Sequence record: PQ657784
Length of the DNA: 64,000 nt
DNA from: Escherichia phage EPIMRB01
Reading direction: 5' to 3' (one strand)
Shown: one piece after another, positions 4,648-27,609 of the stretch
How positions within the stretch are numbered: the first letter of the stretch is position 1
Layout of the letters: every line of letters starts with the position of its first letter
The notes under the pieces: generated by a model
Databases searched by the model: none
Told to the model about the DNA's origin: nothing
Seen by the model: only the letters and a program-made list of their open reading frames with translations
Made by a program: the position numbers and the translations under genes

Positions 4648-5457
4648 ATGCTTAAAGAACAACTGATTGCTGAAGCGCAAAAAATTGATGCTTCCGTTGC
4701 TCTTGATAGTATTTTCGAATCAGTTAATATTTCTCCGGAAGCAAAAGAAACTTTCGGCACTGTATTCGAAGCTACCGTCAAGCAGCACGCCGTTAAATTA
4801 GCTGAATCTCATATCGCTAAAATTGCTGAAAAAGCAGAAGAAGAAGTAGAAAAAAATAAAGAAGAAGCCGAAGAAAAAGCTGAGAAGAAAATCGCTGAGC
4901 AAGCTTCTAAATTCATCGACCATCTTGCGAAAGAATGGCTCGCTGAAAATAAATTAGCAGTTGATAAAGGCATCAAAGCCGAACTGTTTGAATCCATGCT
5001 TGGTGGATTAAAAGAGCTCTTTGTTGAACACAACGTTGTTGTTCCAGAAGAATCAGTTGATGTTGTAGCTGAAATGGAAGAAGAGCTGCAAGAACATAAA
5101 GAAGAATCAGCTCGTCTGTTCGAAGAACTCAATATGCGCGACGCATATATCAATTATGTGCAGCGTGAAGTGGCATTGAGCGAAAGTACTAAAGATCTGA
5201 CTGAGTCTCAAAAAGAAAAAGTCTCTGCTCTGGTCGAAGGTATGGATTATTCAGATGCATTCTCAAGTAAATTGAGTGCCATCGTAGAAATGGTGAAGAA
5301 ATCTAATAAAGATGAAAGCACTATTACTGAGAGTATAAATACTCCTGATACTGAAGCAGCCGGACTGAATTTCGTCACTGAAGCTGTAGAAGATAAAGCT
5401 GCACCTGGTGCAGAAGATATTGTAAGTGTATATGCGAAAGTCGCATCTCGTTTCTAA
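4648..5457 (+). CDS. 22: Prohead core scaffold protein gp22
   Basis: 269-aa highly charged, coiled-coil-like (E/K-rich) protein immediately upstream of the major capsid gene. Confidence 0.9.
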   Translation: MLKEQLIAEAQKIDASVALDSIFESVNISPEAKETFGTVFEATVKQHAVKLAESHIAKIAEKAEEEVEKNKEEAEEKAEKKIAEQASKFIDHLAKEWLAENKLAVDKGIKAELFESMLGGLKELFVEHNVVVPEESVDVVAEMEEELQEHKEESARLFEELNMRDAYINYVQREVALSESTKDLTESQKEKVSALVEGMDYSDAFSSKLSAIVEMVKKSNKDESTITESINTPDTEAAGLNFVTEAVEDKAAPGAEDIVSVYAKVASRF

Positions 5458-5475
5458 TTTTAAAGGTTAACACAA

Positions 5476-7041
5476 ATGACTATCAAAACTAAAGCTGAAC
5501 TTTTGAACAAATGGAAGCCATTACTGGAAGGTGAAGGTTTACCGGAAATTGCTAATAGCAAACAAGCGATTATCGCTAAAATCTTTGAAAACCAGGAAAA
5601 AGATTTCCAGACAGCTCCAGAATACAAAGACGAAAAAATCGCTCAGGCGTTCGGTTCTTTCTTAACAGAAGCTGAAATCGGTGGTGACCACGGTTACAAC
5701 GCTACTAACATCGCTGCTGGTCAAACTTCTGGCGCAGTAACTCAGATTGGCCCAGCTGTTATGGGTATGGTACGTCGTGCTATTCCTAACCTGATTGCTT
5801 TCGATATTTGCGGTGTTCAGCCGATGAACAGCCCGACTGGTCAGGTATTCGCACTGCGCGCAGTATATGGTAAAGACCCAATCGCTGCCGGCGCTAAAGA
5901 AGCATTCCACCCAATGTATGGTCCAGATGCAATGTTCTCTGGTCAGGGTGCTGCTAAGAAATTCACAGCTCTGGCTGCTAGCACACAAACCACAGTAGGT
6001 GATATCTATACTCACTTCTTCCAGGACACTGGTACTGTGTATCTGCAAGCTTCTGCTCAAGTAACAATTAGTGCAAGCGCAACTGACGCTGCTAAATTAG
6101 ATGCTGAAATTAAGAAACAAATGGAAGCTGGTGTACTGGTAGAAATCGCTGAAGGTATGGCTACTTCTATCGCTGAACTTCAGGAAGGTTTCAACGGTTC
6201 TACCGATAACCCATGGAATGAAATGGGCTTCCGTATCGATAAACAAGTTATCGAAGCTAAATCTCGTCAGCTGAAAGCTGCTTACTCTATCGAATTAGCA
6301 CAAGACCTCCGCGCTGTTCACGGTATGGATGCTGATGCTGAACTGTCTGGTATTCTGGCTACCGAAATCATGCTGGAAATCAACCGCGAAGTTGTTGATT
6401 GGATTAACTACTCAGCTCAGGTTGGTAAATCTGGTATGACCCTGACTCCGGGTTCTAAAGCTGGTGTATTTGACTTCCAGGATCCGATTGATATTCGTGG
6501 TGCTCGCTGGGCGGGTGAATCCTTTAAAGCTCTGTTGTTCCAGATTGACAAAGAAGCAGTTGAAATTGCTCGTCAGACTGGTCGTGGTGAAGGTAACTTC
6601 ATTATCGCTTCCCGTAACGTAGTTAACGTTCTGGCTTCAGTTGATACTGGCATTTCTTATGCTGCACAGGGTCTGGCTACCGGCTTTAACACTGATACTA
6701 CCAAGTCAGTATTTGCTGGTGTTCTGGGTGGTAAATACCGTGTATATATCGACCAGTATGCTAAACAGGATTATTTCACTGTAGGTTATAAAGGTCCGAA
6801 CGAAATGGATGCTGGTATTTACTACGCTCCATATGTAGCTCTGACTCCGCTGCGTGGTTCCGATCCGAAGAACTTCCAACCAGTAATGGGATTCAAAACT
6901 CGTTACGGTATCGGTATCAACCCATTTGCAGAATCCGCTGCTCAGGCTCCGGCTTCTCGCATCCAGAGCGGTATGCCTTCTATTCTGAATAGCCTTGGTA
7001 AAAACGCTTACTTCCGCCGTGTATATGTTAAAGGTATCTAA
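5476..7041 (+). CDS. 23: Major capsid protein gp23
   Basis: 521-aa ORF whose sequence I recognise as T4 gp23 (same length); followed by strong hairpin terminator. Confidence 0.95.
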   Translation: MTIKTKAELLNKWKPLLEGEGLPEIANSKQAIIAKIFENQEKDFQTAPEYKDEKIAQAFGSFLTEAEIGGDHGYNATNIAAGQTSGAVTQIGPAVMGMVRRAIPNLIAFDICGVQPMNSPTGQVFALRAVYGKDPIAAGAKEAFHPMYGPDAMFSGQGAAKKFTALAASTQTTVGDIYTHFFQDTGTVYLQASAQVTISASATDAAKLDAEIKKQMEAGVLVEIAEGMATSIAELQEGFNGSTDNPWNEMGFRIDKQVIEAKSRQLKAAYSIELAQDLRAVHGMDADAELSGILATEIMLEINREVVDWINYSAQVGKSGMTLTPGSKAGVFDFQDPIDIRGARWAGESFKALLFQIDKEAVEIARQTGRGEGNFIIASRNVVNVLASVDTGISYAAQGLATGFNTDTTKSVFAGVLGGKYRVYIDQYAKQDYFTVGYKGPNEMDAGIYYAPYVALTPLRGSDPKNFQPVMGFKTRYGIGINPFAESAAQAPASRIQSGMPSILNSLGKNAYFRRVYVKGI

Positions 7042-22834: not shown

Positions 22835-22838
22835 CAAT

Positions 22839-22862
22839 GGGGACCTTTCGGTCCCCATATTT
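22839..22862. terminator. Hairpin terminator between gene 54 (+) and minus-strand early ORF
   Basis: ggggacc tttc ggtcccc followed by T-rich run. Confidence 0.6.
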
Positions 22863-23153
22863 TTATTTACGGAATGAAATAAAAGCAGCAACTGAAGCAA
22901 CTAAACTGTCTTCAATATAAACTTCAATTTTTACCGGAGCTTCTGACTCAAATTTACCTGTTACTACACCTTGGAAAATGCTTTCAGTCTGTTCTGGCTT
23001 TGAAAAATTTTCAGAAGGAAAAATTCCGAACTTTTTATCTGTTCCAAAAATTTTGATAAATTCATCATAAACTGCTTCATTAAAAGCGTTATCAGCAGGA
23101 ATAACGCCTTCAACTACAAGTTCTTGACCTAAAAAGCGTAAAGAAGATTTCAT
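22863..23153 (-). CDS. Hypothetical early protein (alt-downstream ORF)
   Basis: 96-aa ORF with its own early promoter cassette 10-60 bp upstream. Confidence 0.5.
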   Translation of the reverse strand: MKSSLRFLGQELVVEGVIPADNAFNEAVYDEFIKIFGTDKKFGIFPSENFSKPEQTESIFQGVVTGKFESEAPVKIEVYIEDSLVASVAAFISFRK

Positions 23154-23161
23154 TTTGTGTT

Positions 23162-23214
23162 CCTCATGTTATGTTAGTAAGATTATTATAACACAACACG
23201 AGGGACTTGTAAAC
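23162..23214 (-). promoter_or_regulatory. Early promoter cassette (GTTTAC -35, TATAAT -10, leader with GAGG SD) for ORF 22863-23153
   Basis: Minus-strand GTTTACAAGTCCCTCGTGTTGTGTTATAATAATCTTACTAACATAACATGAGG; 49 of 53 nt identical to cassette at 39138-39190. Confidence 0.65.
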
Positions 23215-25271
23215 TACATCTTGAACTTTTTAGACATTCCGTTGATGTTAACCAAAGAAGCCAAGATTTGAGAAACTTCGTTTTCCTCTTCTTTTGATTC
23301 TTCTACAAGGAATTGATTAAACCCAGCCATTGGACGAACTTCACCAGTTTCCATTAGATGATCGCCATCATATACCGATTCTTCTAATTGTTCAGAAGGA
23401 GGAACGATTGTGCCTTCGATTAGATACTTGTTATAAGCAGTTTCTTTCATCATGTACGTGCTTACTTTATTAATCTTCAACAAAATTCCACGCGGTAGAA
23501 TAACTTCAGCTTCTGATGGAAATCCTGATAAATGACCTGGAACGATAACTTTGATTCGCTCAGCCCCTTTAATTACCATACCTACACTAGTTTCAGCATC
23601 TTCATTAGCATATGCAGAATGACTACCCATATGCATTAAATCTTCGGCATCAACGGAACCTTCTCCTTCACCAGAAAATACTGCACCGGAATCATCTAGA
23701 GCCATATAGTTTTTACCATGCTCACCGAAGATATTTGGTTTAAGCGATGTTGATACGAAGTTCTTGAAATAGAACATTTTATTTTCAATATTATGGCGTA
23801 AAGTTTTAAAAGTAACTTCTTGACCACGATAAAGCGTAGTTCCCGGAGGAAGAACTGATCCTTTGGCGAATGCAGAATCCATTGTCTCGATGTGTTTAAT
23901 AGCTCGTTCCATGTATTCTTCACGGGTAGAATCTGGTTTACCTAAAAGGAACGAGTTCATTTCAACATATGAATCTGCACAATAATCTTCAATTACATCA
24001 GACTCAGCCTGAGTCAGTCCTTTTGGAGTTACTTCGGTGCTTGCGTATTCATATGCCTGAGCAGCAGATTCATTAATCAATTTATAAATGCCATTCATGA
24101 CAAATTGAATAATAGCTACCTTTTCGTCTGGCGTGGCTTTAGAACCTTTAACTAAATCATTGATAATTTTCTTAATAACATCAAAGCTATTAGAAATATT
24201 AATGTCAGCGAGATCGCTCAAAATTTTATCTGTTTTATAATCAAAGAATTCTTTATTCTTTAAATATTCTTGAGAACCTTGATGTGTTATATCGCTCTGC
24301 AGTCTGATAGACGGATCACGTAAACGCGCATGGGCCAATGCAATATGATTTCGGAAGCTTTCTAGTTCATAATCGTTAGATTTAAAACGAGAAGCACTTC
24401 TCATACCACCGATAGCTCCTTTGCCGAAGTTTGAACCAATCTGAATAACGCCAGAGTTCATTGGTCCTTCTGCTTTATATACCGGAACTTTAGATTCAAA
24501 CTCTTGATATTTCTTAGCAGCGAAGCTATCGCCCTGGAGTGAAGCATCGACAGTAGAATATTGAGCTTGTGCTGCTAATCGACGACTAATTTTAGTTTTC
24601 TGAATAACAGCTTGATCCGTGCGCTTATCATTTTCTAAAGCAATAGAAGCAGCAACAGCAACAGCTTTAGGAACAGCATTACCTGTTTTGACATCTACAT
24701 AAACATCACCAACCTTTGATTCAACTTTTGTGAATAACTCAGTTGAAATAGGAGGTACACCTGGAATGTCTTCTAAATTGGCATTTTTACGGTAAACCAT
24801 AATATATGCATACTTTTTATCGTAATCCCAGATTTCCTTTAAAAGAACATATCGACCTGCTCCTTTAGTACGTACTAAACGGTCAGCAATAACTTGCATT
24901 TGACGAGCAGCGCCATTTGTTTTACTTTTTAGTACGCGGAATAAGCATGCATCAATTTTATACTGTTTCATTGTTTGAAGAGCAGTATCAAAAACAGCAT
25001 TAATGACACCAATTGGATTTCCACCCAAGTTTTTAAGTTTAACTAATGATAGTTTCTCATTAACACCTATCATTACGATATGCATCATTTTATCGCCTGG
25101 CTTAACGTTTTTATTTGTATCACCGCCAGAGGTGTATGTACAAAATCTAAATCCAGGAAGCACGCTTTCTTCACCAGCTTGAATAGCAAAAATTTGAGGT
25201 ATTTTATGCTTAGGATTTAAGTTAACAACCGGCGCCGAAGCGCCGTCAAATAATTCTGTAATAAGTTCCAT
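23214..25271 (-). CDS. Alt-family ADP-ribosyltransferase paralog (685 aa)
   Basis: N-terminal about 230 aa near-identical to adjacent Alt; C-terminal R-S-E ART motifs YRGQ, FVSTS, EAEVILPRG; start MELITE. Confidence 0.8.
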   Translation of the reverse strand: MELITELFDGASAPVVNLNPKHKIPQIFAIQAGEESVLPGFRFCTYTSGGDTNKNVKPGDKMMHIVMIGVNEKLSLVKLKNLGGNPIGVINAVFDTALQTMKQYKIDACLFRVLKSKTNGAARQMQVIADRLVRTKGAGRYVLLKEIWDYDKKYAYIMVYRKNANLEDIPGVPPISTELFTKVESKVGDVYVDVKTGNAVPKAVAVAASIALENDKRTDQAVIQKTKISRRLAAQAQYSTVDASLQGDSFAAKKYQEFESKVPVYKAEGPMNSGVIQIGSNFGKGAIGGMRSASRFKSNDYELESFRNHIALAHARLRDPSIRLQSDITHQGSQEYLKNKEFFDYKTDKILSDLADINISNSFDVIKKIINDLVKGSKATPDEKVAIIQFVMNGIYKLINESAAQAYEYASTEVTPKGLTQAESDVIEDYCADSYVEMNSFLLGKPDSTREEYMERAIKHIETMDSAFAKGSVLPPGTTLYRGQEVTFKTLRHNIENKMFYFKNFVSTSLKPNIFGEHGKNYMALDDSGAVFSGEGEGSVDAEDLMHMGSHSAYANEDAETSVGMVIKGAERIKVIVPGHLSGFPSEAEVILPRGILLKINKVSTYMMKETAYNKYLIEGTIVPPSEQLEESVYDGDHLMETGEVRPMAGFNQFLVEESKEEENEVSQILASLVNINGMSKKFKM

Positions 25272-25274
25272 GAT

Positions 25275-27371
25275 TTATCCTTGAACGAACTTGTAAGGCA
25301 TGTTTGTAATATCTATGCAAGACGCAATAATTCCAAGAGATGATTCTACTTTCTGTTTAACATTTGATGAAACAAATGATGCAAAATCAACTCTGTCTTC
25401 TATTTCAATATCACCTGTCATTGCAACTACTTCACCAGTTTCCATTAGACGGTCACCGTCATAAATTACTGATTCGGTGAGTTCTTCCGTAGTCATAACT
25501 TCAGCTTGAATGAGTTTTGTATTATTAGATGTTGTTCCGTCATTATTAGAAGCATCAGTTATTTTATTAACTTTGACCATCAATCCGCGTGGTAGAATAA
25601 CTTCAGCTTCTGTTGCTATTCCGAGACTTCCTGGATATACAACATTAACTTTATGAGCTCCATCAATTGCCCATCCTATTTGAACTTTAACGTATTCAGG
25701 ATTTTCTTTATACGCTCTTATTTCATTTGGATTAATAGTTATTCCTTCTTCATTTTTATCAACTGTCAATTCATTACGAGCTTCTGGTTCTAAAAGACCA
25801 ATACCAGCATGTGTAATTCCAAAACGTCCAAAAATGATAGGAGTTAAAGAAGTAGATACAAAATTTCTGAAATAGAACACTTTATTTTTAACTAGTGCTT
25901 CGTATATAGGAGCAGTCATACTTTGAGCACGATAAACTGTAATGCCTTCTGGTATACGGTCACCATTTTCAAAAGCTGAATCTAAGTTATTTATAGCAGA
26001 TTCAATTTCTTTTTCACTCATTACATCATATCGTTCTGGATTGTAGCGTCCTAAAAGAAGATTATTGATGTCAGTATATCCTGAACCGCAATACTCTCTA
26101 ATGCCGCGCTTTTGTGATGGAGTATATTTAGAACCATCACGGGCAATAGTAATATCAATCATTGGACCTGCACCAATTCCAGAAAAGCTATAAATCATTC
26201 GTTTGAGGAATTTAGTTTTTGCTGCGTTCCAGGAATTTTTAGTTATTTCTTCCCAGACTTCATCTGGCTGTCCTTTACGGGTTTTATTATGTTTATCAAG
26301 CCAATTATCTTTATATTCTTCAAAGAGTTGATTAACAGCTGCTGCGTATTTTTCTAAACATTTTATTGAAGTAGTTGGTTCATTTTTAATCGCATTAAGA
26401 ATTACATCTTTAATTTTTTCAGAAACTTCACCAACCTCACTCATTGGAAAGAATTTATAGTCATAATGAAGTTCATCTGCAGTTCCTTCAGCAATAATTT
26501 TTGCTGCCTTAGTTTTAGAAGCTAATGAATTAATTCCAAGCTTCATTTCTTCTGCTTCGGGAATTAAAGGAGCTGTAGCAGGTTTATTGAAATTAGCTGC
26601 GGTAGATTCATACTTTTGGAATAATTCACTTTCAAATCTAGAAGATTCCAATGACTGACTTTGTGCAATTGCTCTACGGGAAATTTTAACTTTAACGATT
26701 ACAGCTTGGTCAGAACGTTTATCGTTTTCTTGTGCAATAGATGCGGCAATTGCCTCATTTTTAGTTACTTGAGCTCCGGTATCTTTATTGATATAAACAT
26801 CACCGACCTTCGATTCAACTTTAGTAAAGAGCTCGGTACTAATTTCAGGAACTCCTGGAATGTCTTCTAATGATACATTTTTGCGATGTATAAGAATATA
26901 TGCATACTTTTTATCGTAATCCCAGAGTTCCTTAAGAAGGACGTATCTGCCACCTGAACGACTACGGATAAGTCTATCAGCAATAAGTTGAATTTGACGA
27001 GCTTGACCAGCAGTTTTAGACTTAAGAATACGGAGCATACAGGCATCAATTTTATACTGACGCATCGTCTGCATCGCAACAGTAAAAACTGAATTGATGT
27101 AATTAATTGGGCTTGGACCGAGACCTTTTAATTTAGCAATTGAACCTTTGGCAGTTAATGTAAAAGGAACAATATGCATCATTTTATCGCCCATCTTTAA
27201 ATCGCGATTAGTATCACCTCCAGATGTATAGGTACATAAACGAAAGCCTGGTTGTTCAATTGCGTCATCAACATGAACTGAAAAAATTTGCGGTATTTTC
27301 TTCTTTGGATTTAAGTTTGTAATCGGAAGAGTAGTATCTTCGTCAAATAATTCTGTAATGAGTTCCATCAT
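25275..27371 (-). CDS. alt: Alt ADP-ribosyltransferase (698 aa), packaged internal head protein
   Basis: Sequence matches what I recall of T4 Alt; ART motifs YRAQ, FVSTS, EAEVILPRG; stop is 3 nt from start of downstream paralog. Confidence 0.85.
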   Translation of the reverse strand: MMELITELFDEDTTLPITNLNPKKKIPQIFSVHVDDAIEQPGFRLCTYTSGGDTNRDLKMGDKMMHIVPFTLTAKGSIAKLKGLGPSPINYINSVFTVAMQTMRQYKIDACMLRILKSKTAGQARQIQLIADRLIRSRSGGRYVLLKELWDYDKKYAYILIHRKNVSLEDIPGVPEISTELFTKVESKVGDVYINKDTGAQVTKNEAIAASIAQENDKRSDQAVIVKVKISRRAIAQSQSLESSRFESELFQKYESTAANFNKPATAPLIPEAEEMKLGINSLASKTKAAKIIAEGTADELHYDYKFFPMSEVGEVSEKIKDVILNAIKNEPTTSIKCLEKYAAAVNQLFEEYKDNWLDKHNKTRKGQPDEVWEEITKNSWNAAKTKFLKRMIYSFSGIGAGPMIDITIARDGSKYTPSQKRGIREYCGSGYTDINNLLLGRYNPERYDVMSEKEIESAINNLDSAFENGDRIPEGITVYRAQSMTAPIYEALVKNKVFYFRNFVSTSLTPIIFGRFGITHAGIGLLEPEARNELTVDKNEEGITINPNEIRAYKENPEYVKVQIGWAIDGAHKVNVVYPGSLGIATEAEVILPRGLMVKVNKITDASNNDGTTSNNTKLIQAEVMTTEELTESVIYDGDRLMETGEVVAMTGDIEIEDRVDFASFVSSNVKQKVESSLGIIASCIDITNMPYKFVQG

Positions 27372-27404
27372 ATCCTCTCTAGTGTTTATTCTATTTATAA
27401 AATT

Positions 27405-27422
27405 AAAGGCCCGAAGGCCTTT
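27405..27422 (-). terminator. Hairpin between gene 30-side ORF and alt
   Basis: aaaggcc cgaa ggccttt. Confidence 0.5.
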
Positions 27423-27609
27423 AATAATCTATTGGTAAGAGAGTACGGTATATTTCAAACTTTGGACCTTTTTCATAGGCATCAAATGTTTCTGTGAATT
27501 TATTATAAGCATATGCATCTATAAATTCAATCATAATTTGTGATACAGAAGTAGAAACATCTCCACCTTCTTTTTGAGCAACGACAATTGTTTCTAAGTA
27601 AGCTTTCAT
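27421..27609 (-). CDS. Hypothetical small protein
   Basis: 62-aa ORF overlapping ligase gene stop by 4 nt; unknown. Confidence 0.4.
   Translation of the reverse strand: MKAYLETIVVAQKEGGDVSTSVSQIMIEFIDAYAYNKFTETFDAYEKGPKFEIYRTLLPIDY

Follow-up and report, generated by a model that had tools for sequence, protein, structure and literature searches.

Two adjacent full-length Alt-family ADP-ribosyltransferase genes in Escherichia phage EPIMRB01 and the remnant of the second copy in T4

How many ADP-ribosyltransferases does a T-even phage send into its host together with the DNA, and what is the second gene for where two of them stand side by side? The question is raised by a locus of Escherichia phage EPIMRB01, a Tequatrovirus (T4-like phage), of which a stretch of 64,000 nucleotides (nt) was analysed (sequence record PQ657784; this whole stretch is called the window and positions are counted from its first nucleotide). 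The locus carries two neighbouring genes, alt and alt.-2, that code for members of the Alt family. Comparison with related phages indicates that two intact copies are the normal T-even state and that T4 is a phage that has lost the second one. The two products are probably late-expressed, capsid-packaged and injected arginine ADP-ribosyltransferases with different host targets. The tandem pair is itself already known, being annotated in the public records of about 400 T-even genomes, and alt duplications were described in 2006. What is added here is the exact route of the loss in T4, the purifying selection acting on both copies and the presence in alt.-2 of both processing sites mapped in T4 Alt.

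The two genes and their catalytic core

Gene alt (25275-27368, 697 amino acids (aa)) is the positional ortholog of the T4 alt gene, to which it also corresponds by the termini of its product. Gene alt.-2 (23214-25271, 685 aa) encodes the second full-length Alt-family ADP-ribosyltransferase. Both genes, as well as the codons and motifs located below, are on the minus strand. The TAA stop codon of alt (25277-25275) is followed by the three nucleotides ATC and then by the ATG of alt.-2 at 25271. An open reading frame (ORF) finder extends alt to position 27371 (698 aa) owing to an extra in-frame ATG, yielding a protein that begins with MMELITE. The second ATG at 27368 gives MELITE and 697 aa, and is the annotated alt start in phages AUBRB02, T2, RB14 and T4. 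It is favoured because it is better spaced from the Shine-Dalgarno sequence GAGGA (27373-27377, minus strand), which lies 4 nt upstream of it and only 1 nt before the ATG at 27371.

The two proteins align over their full length by BLASTP with 41% identity (E 5e-156). Both match the PF03496 ADPrib_exo_Tox family well above its cut-off of 23.4 bits (alt, 9.8e-38 and 129.9 bits; alt.-2, 3.2e-20 and 72.8 bits), and the 674-position profile of PHROG 802 (“Alt-like RNA polymerase ADP-ribosyltransferase”) is matched end to end, from residue 1 to 696 in alt and from 1 to 685 in alt.-2. No NCBIfam model was found for either protein. A PDB sequence search returned no match to alt.-2 at E ≤ 0.01 and only weak CdtA/iota matches to alt (E 5e-4), with no solved Alt structure. 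The alignments and a structural model of alt.-2 (see below) give both proteins the architecture of the family, with an N-terminal domain of ~240 aa, a helical centre, the ADP-ribosyltransferase (ART) domain and a C-terminal tail. Conservation within the family is highest in the N-terminal domain, and 160 of its first 238 residues (67%; 69% at the DNA level) are identical in the two paralogs. Identity is 16% in the centre, 35% in the ART domain and 38% in the tail, which is 11 residues shorter in alt.-2. The most divergent elements are the central helical region, a long insert between the STS and ExE motifs and the residues immediately preceding ExE, which read GIATEAE in alt, GFPSEAE in alt.-2 and APSNEME in T4 Alt.

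The catalytic residues were located in two alignments, one of nine sequences in alt numbering and the other of 62 diverse family members in alt.-2 numbering. The catalytic Arg480 of the alt YR motif (codon 25929-25931) occupies a column that is invariant in both alignments, where it corresponds to R482 of alt.-2. The S505-T-S507 (25848-25856) and E587-A-E589 (ExE; 25602-25610) motifs of alt were assigned by alignment. Their counterparts in alt.-2 are Arg482 (23826-23828), which is invariant in the 62 family members, S507-T-S509 (23745-23753), whose first serine is invariant and whose second is more than 90% conserved, and E587-A-E589 (23505-23513), of which both glutamates are invariant. When alt is aligned with CdtA, the arginine of the CdtA TVYR sequence coincides with Arg480 and its EYE sequence with ExE. 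Mutation E577A in the region of the second glutamate of T4 Alt abolishes ADP-ribosylation (PMC11404850).

The AlphaFold2 model of alt.-2 has a predicted local distance difference test score (pLDDT) of 83.4 and a predicted template modelling (TM) score of 0.79, residues 518-539 of the insert between STS and ExE being of low confidence. A Foldseek search matched its C-terminal half to the solved ARTs Vis, Certhrax, C3bot, CDTa, iota-like toxin and VIP2 (E 5e-7 to 1e-4, target TM scores of ~0.6-0.67). These data support the assignment of both ORFs as complete members of the Alt family, in the Alt/VIP2 clade of R-S-E ADP-ribosyltransferases, the catalytic core being intact in each. The initial annotation, made from the sequence alone, had proposed two co-directional full-length Alt paralogs 3 nt apart, and their coordinates, spacing and homology are confirmed. 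The catalytic motifs that it read in both C-termini are all present (YRAQ at 479-482 of alt and YRGQ at 481-484 of alt.-2, FVSTSL in both, TEAEVILPRG and SEAEVILPRG). Its view that the proteins diverge through the middle also holds, the differences clustering in the central region and in loops close to the catalytic residues, while its description of the N-termini as nearly identical was overstated.

Loss of alt.-2 in T4 and its maintenance in other T-even phages

The 4.9-kb region that contains the two genes is 100% identical to that of Escherichia phage AUBRB02, whose record names them alt_2 and alt_1. Many other Tequatrovirus records are 97-99% identical and carry two genes annotated “Alt-like RNA polymerase ADP-ribosyltransferase”. 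The downstream 685-aa gene bears the name alt.-2, used here, in RB14 and ime09. Full-length and partial duplications of alt in T4-like genomes have been described (Nolan et al. 2006, PMC1524935), and the caution of the initial annotation that a second copy might already be known in T-even phages was justified, the pair being annotated in hundreds of their genomes.

T4 itself is annotated differently. Its 682-aa alt is followed by alt.-1 (61 aa, NP_049810) and by a small alt.-2 (67 aa, NP_049809), described as an “old duplication of the first part of gene alt”. Translation of this T4 stretch yields residues 1-54 of the 685-aa protein of the window with threonine in place of asparagine at position 17 as the single substitution, before it runs into a frameshift. 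Of the window alt.-2, the T4 DNA retains 348 nt at the 5′ end and ~20 nt at the 3′ end, with scattered substitutions. It has lost one nucleotide in an A run, together with the whole segment that two copies of the 9-bp direct repeat CTAAAAAGT enclose. In the window, the upstream copy of the repeat (24924-24932, minus strand) corresponds to the left end of the T4 deletion and the downstream copy (23225-23233, minus strand) to its right end, with 1,699 bp between copies. The window and T4 differ in length here by 1,700 bp in total, which matches exactly a deletion of 1,699 bp plus one nucleotide. The small PHROGs 23015 and 15247, of unknown function and with the lengths of T4 alt.-1 and alt.-2 (61 and 67 aa), are matched by the 685-aa protein at 2e-40 and 3e-38 and by alt at 1e-21 and 2e-19. 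Because of the deletion bounded by CTAAAAAGT and the frameshift, T4 alt.-1/alt.-2 are read as the deletion remnant of a full-length paralog and not as a partial duplication. The 685-aa ORF is consequently not a characterised neighbour of alt in T4, an eventuality that the initial annotation had raised; T4 has only this truncated remnant of the same paralog.

The remnant, used as query, is 90-100% identical across phage records. The T4-type deletion was found in at least 45 other records (e.g., RB55, RB59, vB_EcoM_112 and ACG-C40), a count restricted to records at 100% query coverage, a threshold of ≥80% being unusable as the retained 5′ part alone represents 83% of the query. Its presence in these records makes the deletion a natural trait of a lineage. 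Phage sutha lost alt.-2 independently, through a different deletion equivalent to window positions 25278-23341. A C-terminal stub of 38 aa (5012-5128 of the sutha locus sequence) is annotated there as a second “Alt-like” gene.

These losses could mean that alt.-2 is a redundant or decaying duplicate without a function of its own and that T4 represents the end state of a process under way elsewhere. The deleted and frameshifted remnant in T4 and in at least 45 other records, the separate deletion in sutha and the non-essential character of alt in T4 under laboratory conditions (PMC9026906) can all be cited in favour of this explanation. Its weakness lies in the distribution of the intact gene. 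By tblastn, Alt-family genes were identified in 1,221 phage records; 401 of these have alt.-2 at ≥90% aa identity, and an intact ORF of 685 aa occurs in 401 records. At 94-100% identity, the segment that T4 lacks is likewise present in 401 phage records, T2, RB7, RB14, RB27 and PST among them. Two Alt-family places were found in all 20 of the alt.-2 records listed, T6 among them, and were confirmed separately for T2 and RB14.

Substitution patterns argue in the same direction. Among the window, T2, RB14 and Ec_O157kw, alt.-2 is uninterrupted over 685 aa and its ratio of non-synonymous to synonymous substitution rates (dN/dS) is 0.034-0.044, while synonymous divergence (dS) reaches 0.20-0.27. 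For alt the ratio is 0.04-0.07 when the window is compared with the same three phages. Both genes are under strong purifying selection. Frameshifts, premature stops, deletions and signs of relaxed selection, which would characterise a pseudogene, are all absent from alt.-2, and all its catalytic residues and both processing motifs are kept. The dS between the paralogs is above 1 even over their conserved N-terminal region, and for this reason they are considered old and not subject to homogenisation, which implies that the second copy has been retained for a long time. Related proteins with ~48% identity to alt.-2, those of JS10 and IME341 for instance, are nearer to it than to alt, suggesting that the duplication predates the genus. 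On this balance a decaying duplicate is most improbable. Recent gene conversion between the N-terminal regions of the two genes was considered separately and ruled out by their 69% nucleotide identity, a longest shared exact word of 32 nt and the dS above 1.

Expression, packaging and possible targets of the two proteins

A match to the T4 late-promoter consensus TATAAATA was found by pattern search at 27392-27399 (minus strand), 24 nt upstream of the alt start codon and in the same place as in T4. Its late-promoter function is predicted from the known T4 consensus. Upstream of it, and directly 3′ of the alt.1 stop codon, lies a terminator-like hairpin (AAAGGCC-TTCG-GGCCTTT; 27405-27422, minus strand) that is identical in T4. 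A terminator upstream of alt was reported in five of six T4-like genomes (Nolan et al. 2006, PMC1524935). The region that comprises the hairpin, TATAAATA and GAGGA is the same as in T4, except for a 5-nt GAATA repeat downstream of TATAAATA, present in T4 and absent from the window. The Shine-Dalgarno sequence of alt.-2, AAGGA (25278-25282, minus strand), is embedded in the last codons of alt and ends 6 nt before the ATG at 25271. Co-transcription of alt and alt.-2 is the simplest reading because the gap of 3 nt between them has no room for a promoter. Late in infection, the TATAAATA promoter upstream of alt would drive both genes as a single transcription unit, and alt.-2 would be translated from its own AAGGA site following the alt stop codon. 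A strong σ70/T4-early-type promoter (TTTACA-17-TATAAT, 11 of 12 matches and a TG extension; 23185-23213, minus strand) is found directly 3′ of the alt.-2 stop codon. It serves alt.-3 and, by its sequence and position, marks the 3′ limit of the putative late unit.

T4 Alt is a core and head protein present in ~40 copies and ejected with the DNA (PMC9026906). Mass spectrometry showed that the prohead protease gp21 removes 6 residues from its N-terminus (ITE-6) and 63 from its C-terminus (LTE-619), giving a 68.2 kDa protein (PMC5694885). The cleavage-motif rule applied here reproduces this published mass for T4 Alt. It predicts cleavage of alt after ITE-6 and LTE-632, leaving a mature protein of 626 aa (70.1 kDa), and of alt.-2 after ITE-6 and LEE-631, leaving 625 aa (69.1 kDa). 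The predicted C-terminal site of alt, L630-T-E632 (25473-25481, minus strand), is homologous to LTE-619 of T4 Alt and lies ahead of the conserved S-x-YDGD block. In alt.-2 the predicted N-terminal propeptide MELITE is encoded by codons 1-6 (25254-25271, minus strand) and consists of the same six residues that T4 Alt loses (PMC5694885); E6 is kept in more than 90% of the 62 family members. The predicted C-terminal site, L629-E-E631 (23379-23387, minus strand), immediately precedes a conserved S-x-YDGD-x-L-M-E-T-G-E sequence. It forms part of a block, L-x-E-S-x-(x)-YDGD-x-L-M-E-T-G-E, that is the best conserved part of the tail throughout the family. In the alt.-2 model this site borders a low-confidence segment (residues 632-636, pLDDT <50). 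As both the ITE-6 and the C-terminal LxE sites are retained in the two paralogs, packaging of both is a reasonable assumption. Prohead protease gp21 would then trim both proteins at ITE-6 and at an LxE sequence ~55-65 residues from the C-terminus, to products of ~70 and ~69 kDa, and both would be injected with the DNA.

A different possibility is that alt.-2 is an active ADP-ribosyltransferase that is not packaged and acts late in the producing cell, closer in this respect to ModA/ModB than to Alt. Its presence in the virion is a prediction from motifs, and its tail, shorter and only 38% identical to that of alt, is compatible with such a role. On the other hand, alt.-2 has retained exactly the six-residue MELITE propeptide, the LxE-S-x-YDGD-x-LMETGE block around the site mapped in T4 Alt and the ~240-aa N-terminal domain, and its position and expression signals fit late co-expression with a head protein. 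We regard an unpackaged alt.-2 as unlikely. Packaging, processing and injection of alt.-2 are predicted on the basis of these motifs.

Once in the newly infected cell, each protein would mono-ADP-ribosylate arginines of host proteins using nicotinamide adenine dinucleotide (NAD+), through its C3/iota-type R / S-T-S / E-x-E site. RNA polymerase alpha is among the host proteins whose NAD+-dependent ADP-ribosylation characterises the T4 Alt family. The sets of host proteins modified by alt and by alt.-2 are most likely different, because the centre and the loops flanking the active site differ strongly between paralogs that are each tightly conserved among phages (98-99% at the protein level). 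The paralogs resemble each other most in the parts that determine packaging, processing and catalysis. Different substrate ranges fit this divergence pattern better than simple redundancy would.

The two enzymes might instead share their targets, the second copy raising the injected dose or serving as a back-up that host countermeasures against Alt do not recognise. Fold, catalytic motifs and predicted processing are indeed common to both, and numerous proteins of the host are stated to be modified by T4 Alt alone (Depping et al. 2005, cited in PMC5512222). With only 16% identity in the centre and 35% in the ART domain, a different loop before ExE and 98-99% conservation of each paralog, shared targets are quite unlikely. 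Were a higher dose the only benefit, sequences as different as these would not both be preserved, an argument that spares the back-up variant.

The proposal that we consider likely is thus that of two late-expressed, packaged and injected arginine ADP-ribosyltransferases with different host targets. Several points weigh against it. The intergenic gap lacks a late promoter, which makes transcription of alt.-2 dependent on read-through from alt. A second TATAAATA sequence is found inside alt (25988-25995, minus strand), 717 nt upstream of the alt.-2 start, and is kept in T2, RB14 and Ec_O157kw but missing from the T4-type allele; it may be an alternative late promoter for alt.-2 or merely codons for A-I-N-N. 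The specificity for arginine is suggested only by the ExE motif and by T4 Alt, and the difference in targets only by the pattern of divergence. The loss of alt.-2 on at least two occasions, in the T4 lineage and in sutha, implies that the gene is dispensable in some conditions, and the non-essential nature of alt in T4 is of the same tenor. A full-text literature search on alt.-2 yielded neither virion proteomics nor expression or enzymological data, and the name alt.-2 was met in one relevant paper.

From the same search alt.-2 appears never to have been studied experimentally. Nearly all functional work on the injected ADP-ribosyltransferases of T-even phages was carried out in T4, which belongs to the Tequatrovirus minority without a working alt.-2. 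The gene is retained by some 400 sequenced relatives, T2 and T6 among them. It is thus a conserved and probably injected host-modifying enzyme that is uncharacterised as far as the literature search shows. We propose tentatively that alt.-2 is a second injected effector with its own host targets, or one that acts on another class of substrate such as NAD-capped RNA. If true, most natural T-even phages deliver more than the single injected ADP-ribosyltransferase of the classical picture. The ~240-aa N-terminal domain common to both proteins may in addition be a general head-delivery module that other phages have fused to unrelated effector domains.

Genomic setting and comparison with known systems

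The locus lies between the DNA ligase gene with alt.1 and the baseplate gene 54, on the strand opposite to gene 54, an order shared with T4, T2 and RB14. As in T4, gp48 and gp54 are followed on the opposite strand by alt.-3, the two ADP-ribosyltransferase genes, alt.1 and DNA ligase. A search of the window for tRNA genes found none. The alt.1 gene (27421-27609, minus strand, 62 aa) matches Pfam PF24647 “Phage blade protein” (7.5e-29) and PHROG 1976, its 5′ end overlapping the 3′ end of the DNA ligase gene. The alt.-3 gene (22863-23153, minus strand, 96 aa) belongs to Pfam DUF5498 and PHROG 1739. C-terminal extensions of the T4 alt.-3 protein allow the phage to escape the CmdTAC defence system (PMC11618068); the gene of the window codes for the normal 96-aa form. 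A perfect GC-rich hairpin with a 9-bp stem and T runs on both strands is found at 22837-22858, between the converging genes 54 and alt.-3, and looks like a bidirectional terminator.

The closest characterised counterpart of alt is T4 Alt (NP_049811), an NAD+-arginine ADP-ribosyltransferase and injected head protein whose gene has the same position and promoter region. The two proteins have the R, STS and ExE residues and the cleavage motifs in common. Their overall identity is 70%, distributed very unevenly: 98-100% in residues 1-240, 97% in the last ~40 and 13-75% per 40-aa block in the middle. The window alt is a mosaic, in which positions 25500-26560, catalytic domain included, have 13-75% identity to the T4 allele (4650-5700 of the T4 locus sequence) with a dN of 0.21. 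It is an allele of the T2/RB14 type, unlike that of T4; the T4-type middle is present in 175 phage records. Alleles of alt reassort, as phage SHFML-11 pairs a T4-type alt with an intact alt.-2. The comparison of T4 Alt with alt.-2 yields 41% identity, with length class, domain order, motifs and PHROG family shared. An origin of T4 Alt by fusion of the two window paralogs was rejected, because T4 Alt is collinear with the alt of the window and its identity to alt.-2 is only 41% along the whole length.

T4 alt.-1/alt.-2 occupy the same locus as the 685-aa gene, which is intact in the window and free of the T4 deletion and frameshift. The RB14 alt.-2 is the same gene, with 685 aa and 94.4% nucleotide identity over the 1,681-nt segment deleted in T4. 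Other annotated second copies of alt (RB14 alt.-2 itself, 44RR ORF187c and the paired “Alt-like” genes of RefSeq records) show no substantive difference from the arrangement in the window, which adds one more instance to them.

Outside phages, the C3-like and binary toxins (Vis, C3bot, Certhrax, CDTa, iota Ia and VIP2) have in common with both Alt paralogs the ART fold, the R / STS / ExE signature and PF03496. Their identity to alt.-2 is only 14-20%, and they are secreted bacterial proteins whereas Alt is delivered from the phage head. The long and divergent insertion between STS and ExE is a feature of the Alt paralogs relative to these toxins.

Within the same phage group, T4 ModA and ModB are also R-S-E ADP-ribosyltransferases and modify host proteins of transcription and translation. 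The Mod proteins have ~200 aa and are expressed early, and they are not known to be packaged or to have the N-terminal domain of Alt, its central helical region or its processed tail. Injection from the head is a property of Alt that ModA and ModB do not share (PMC5512222).

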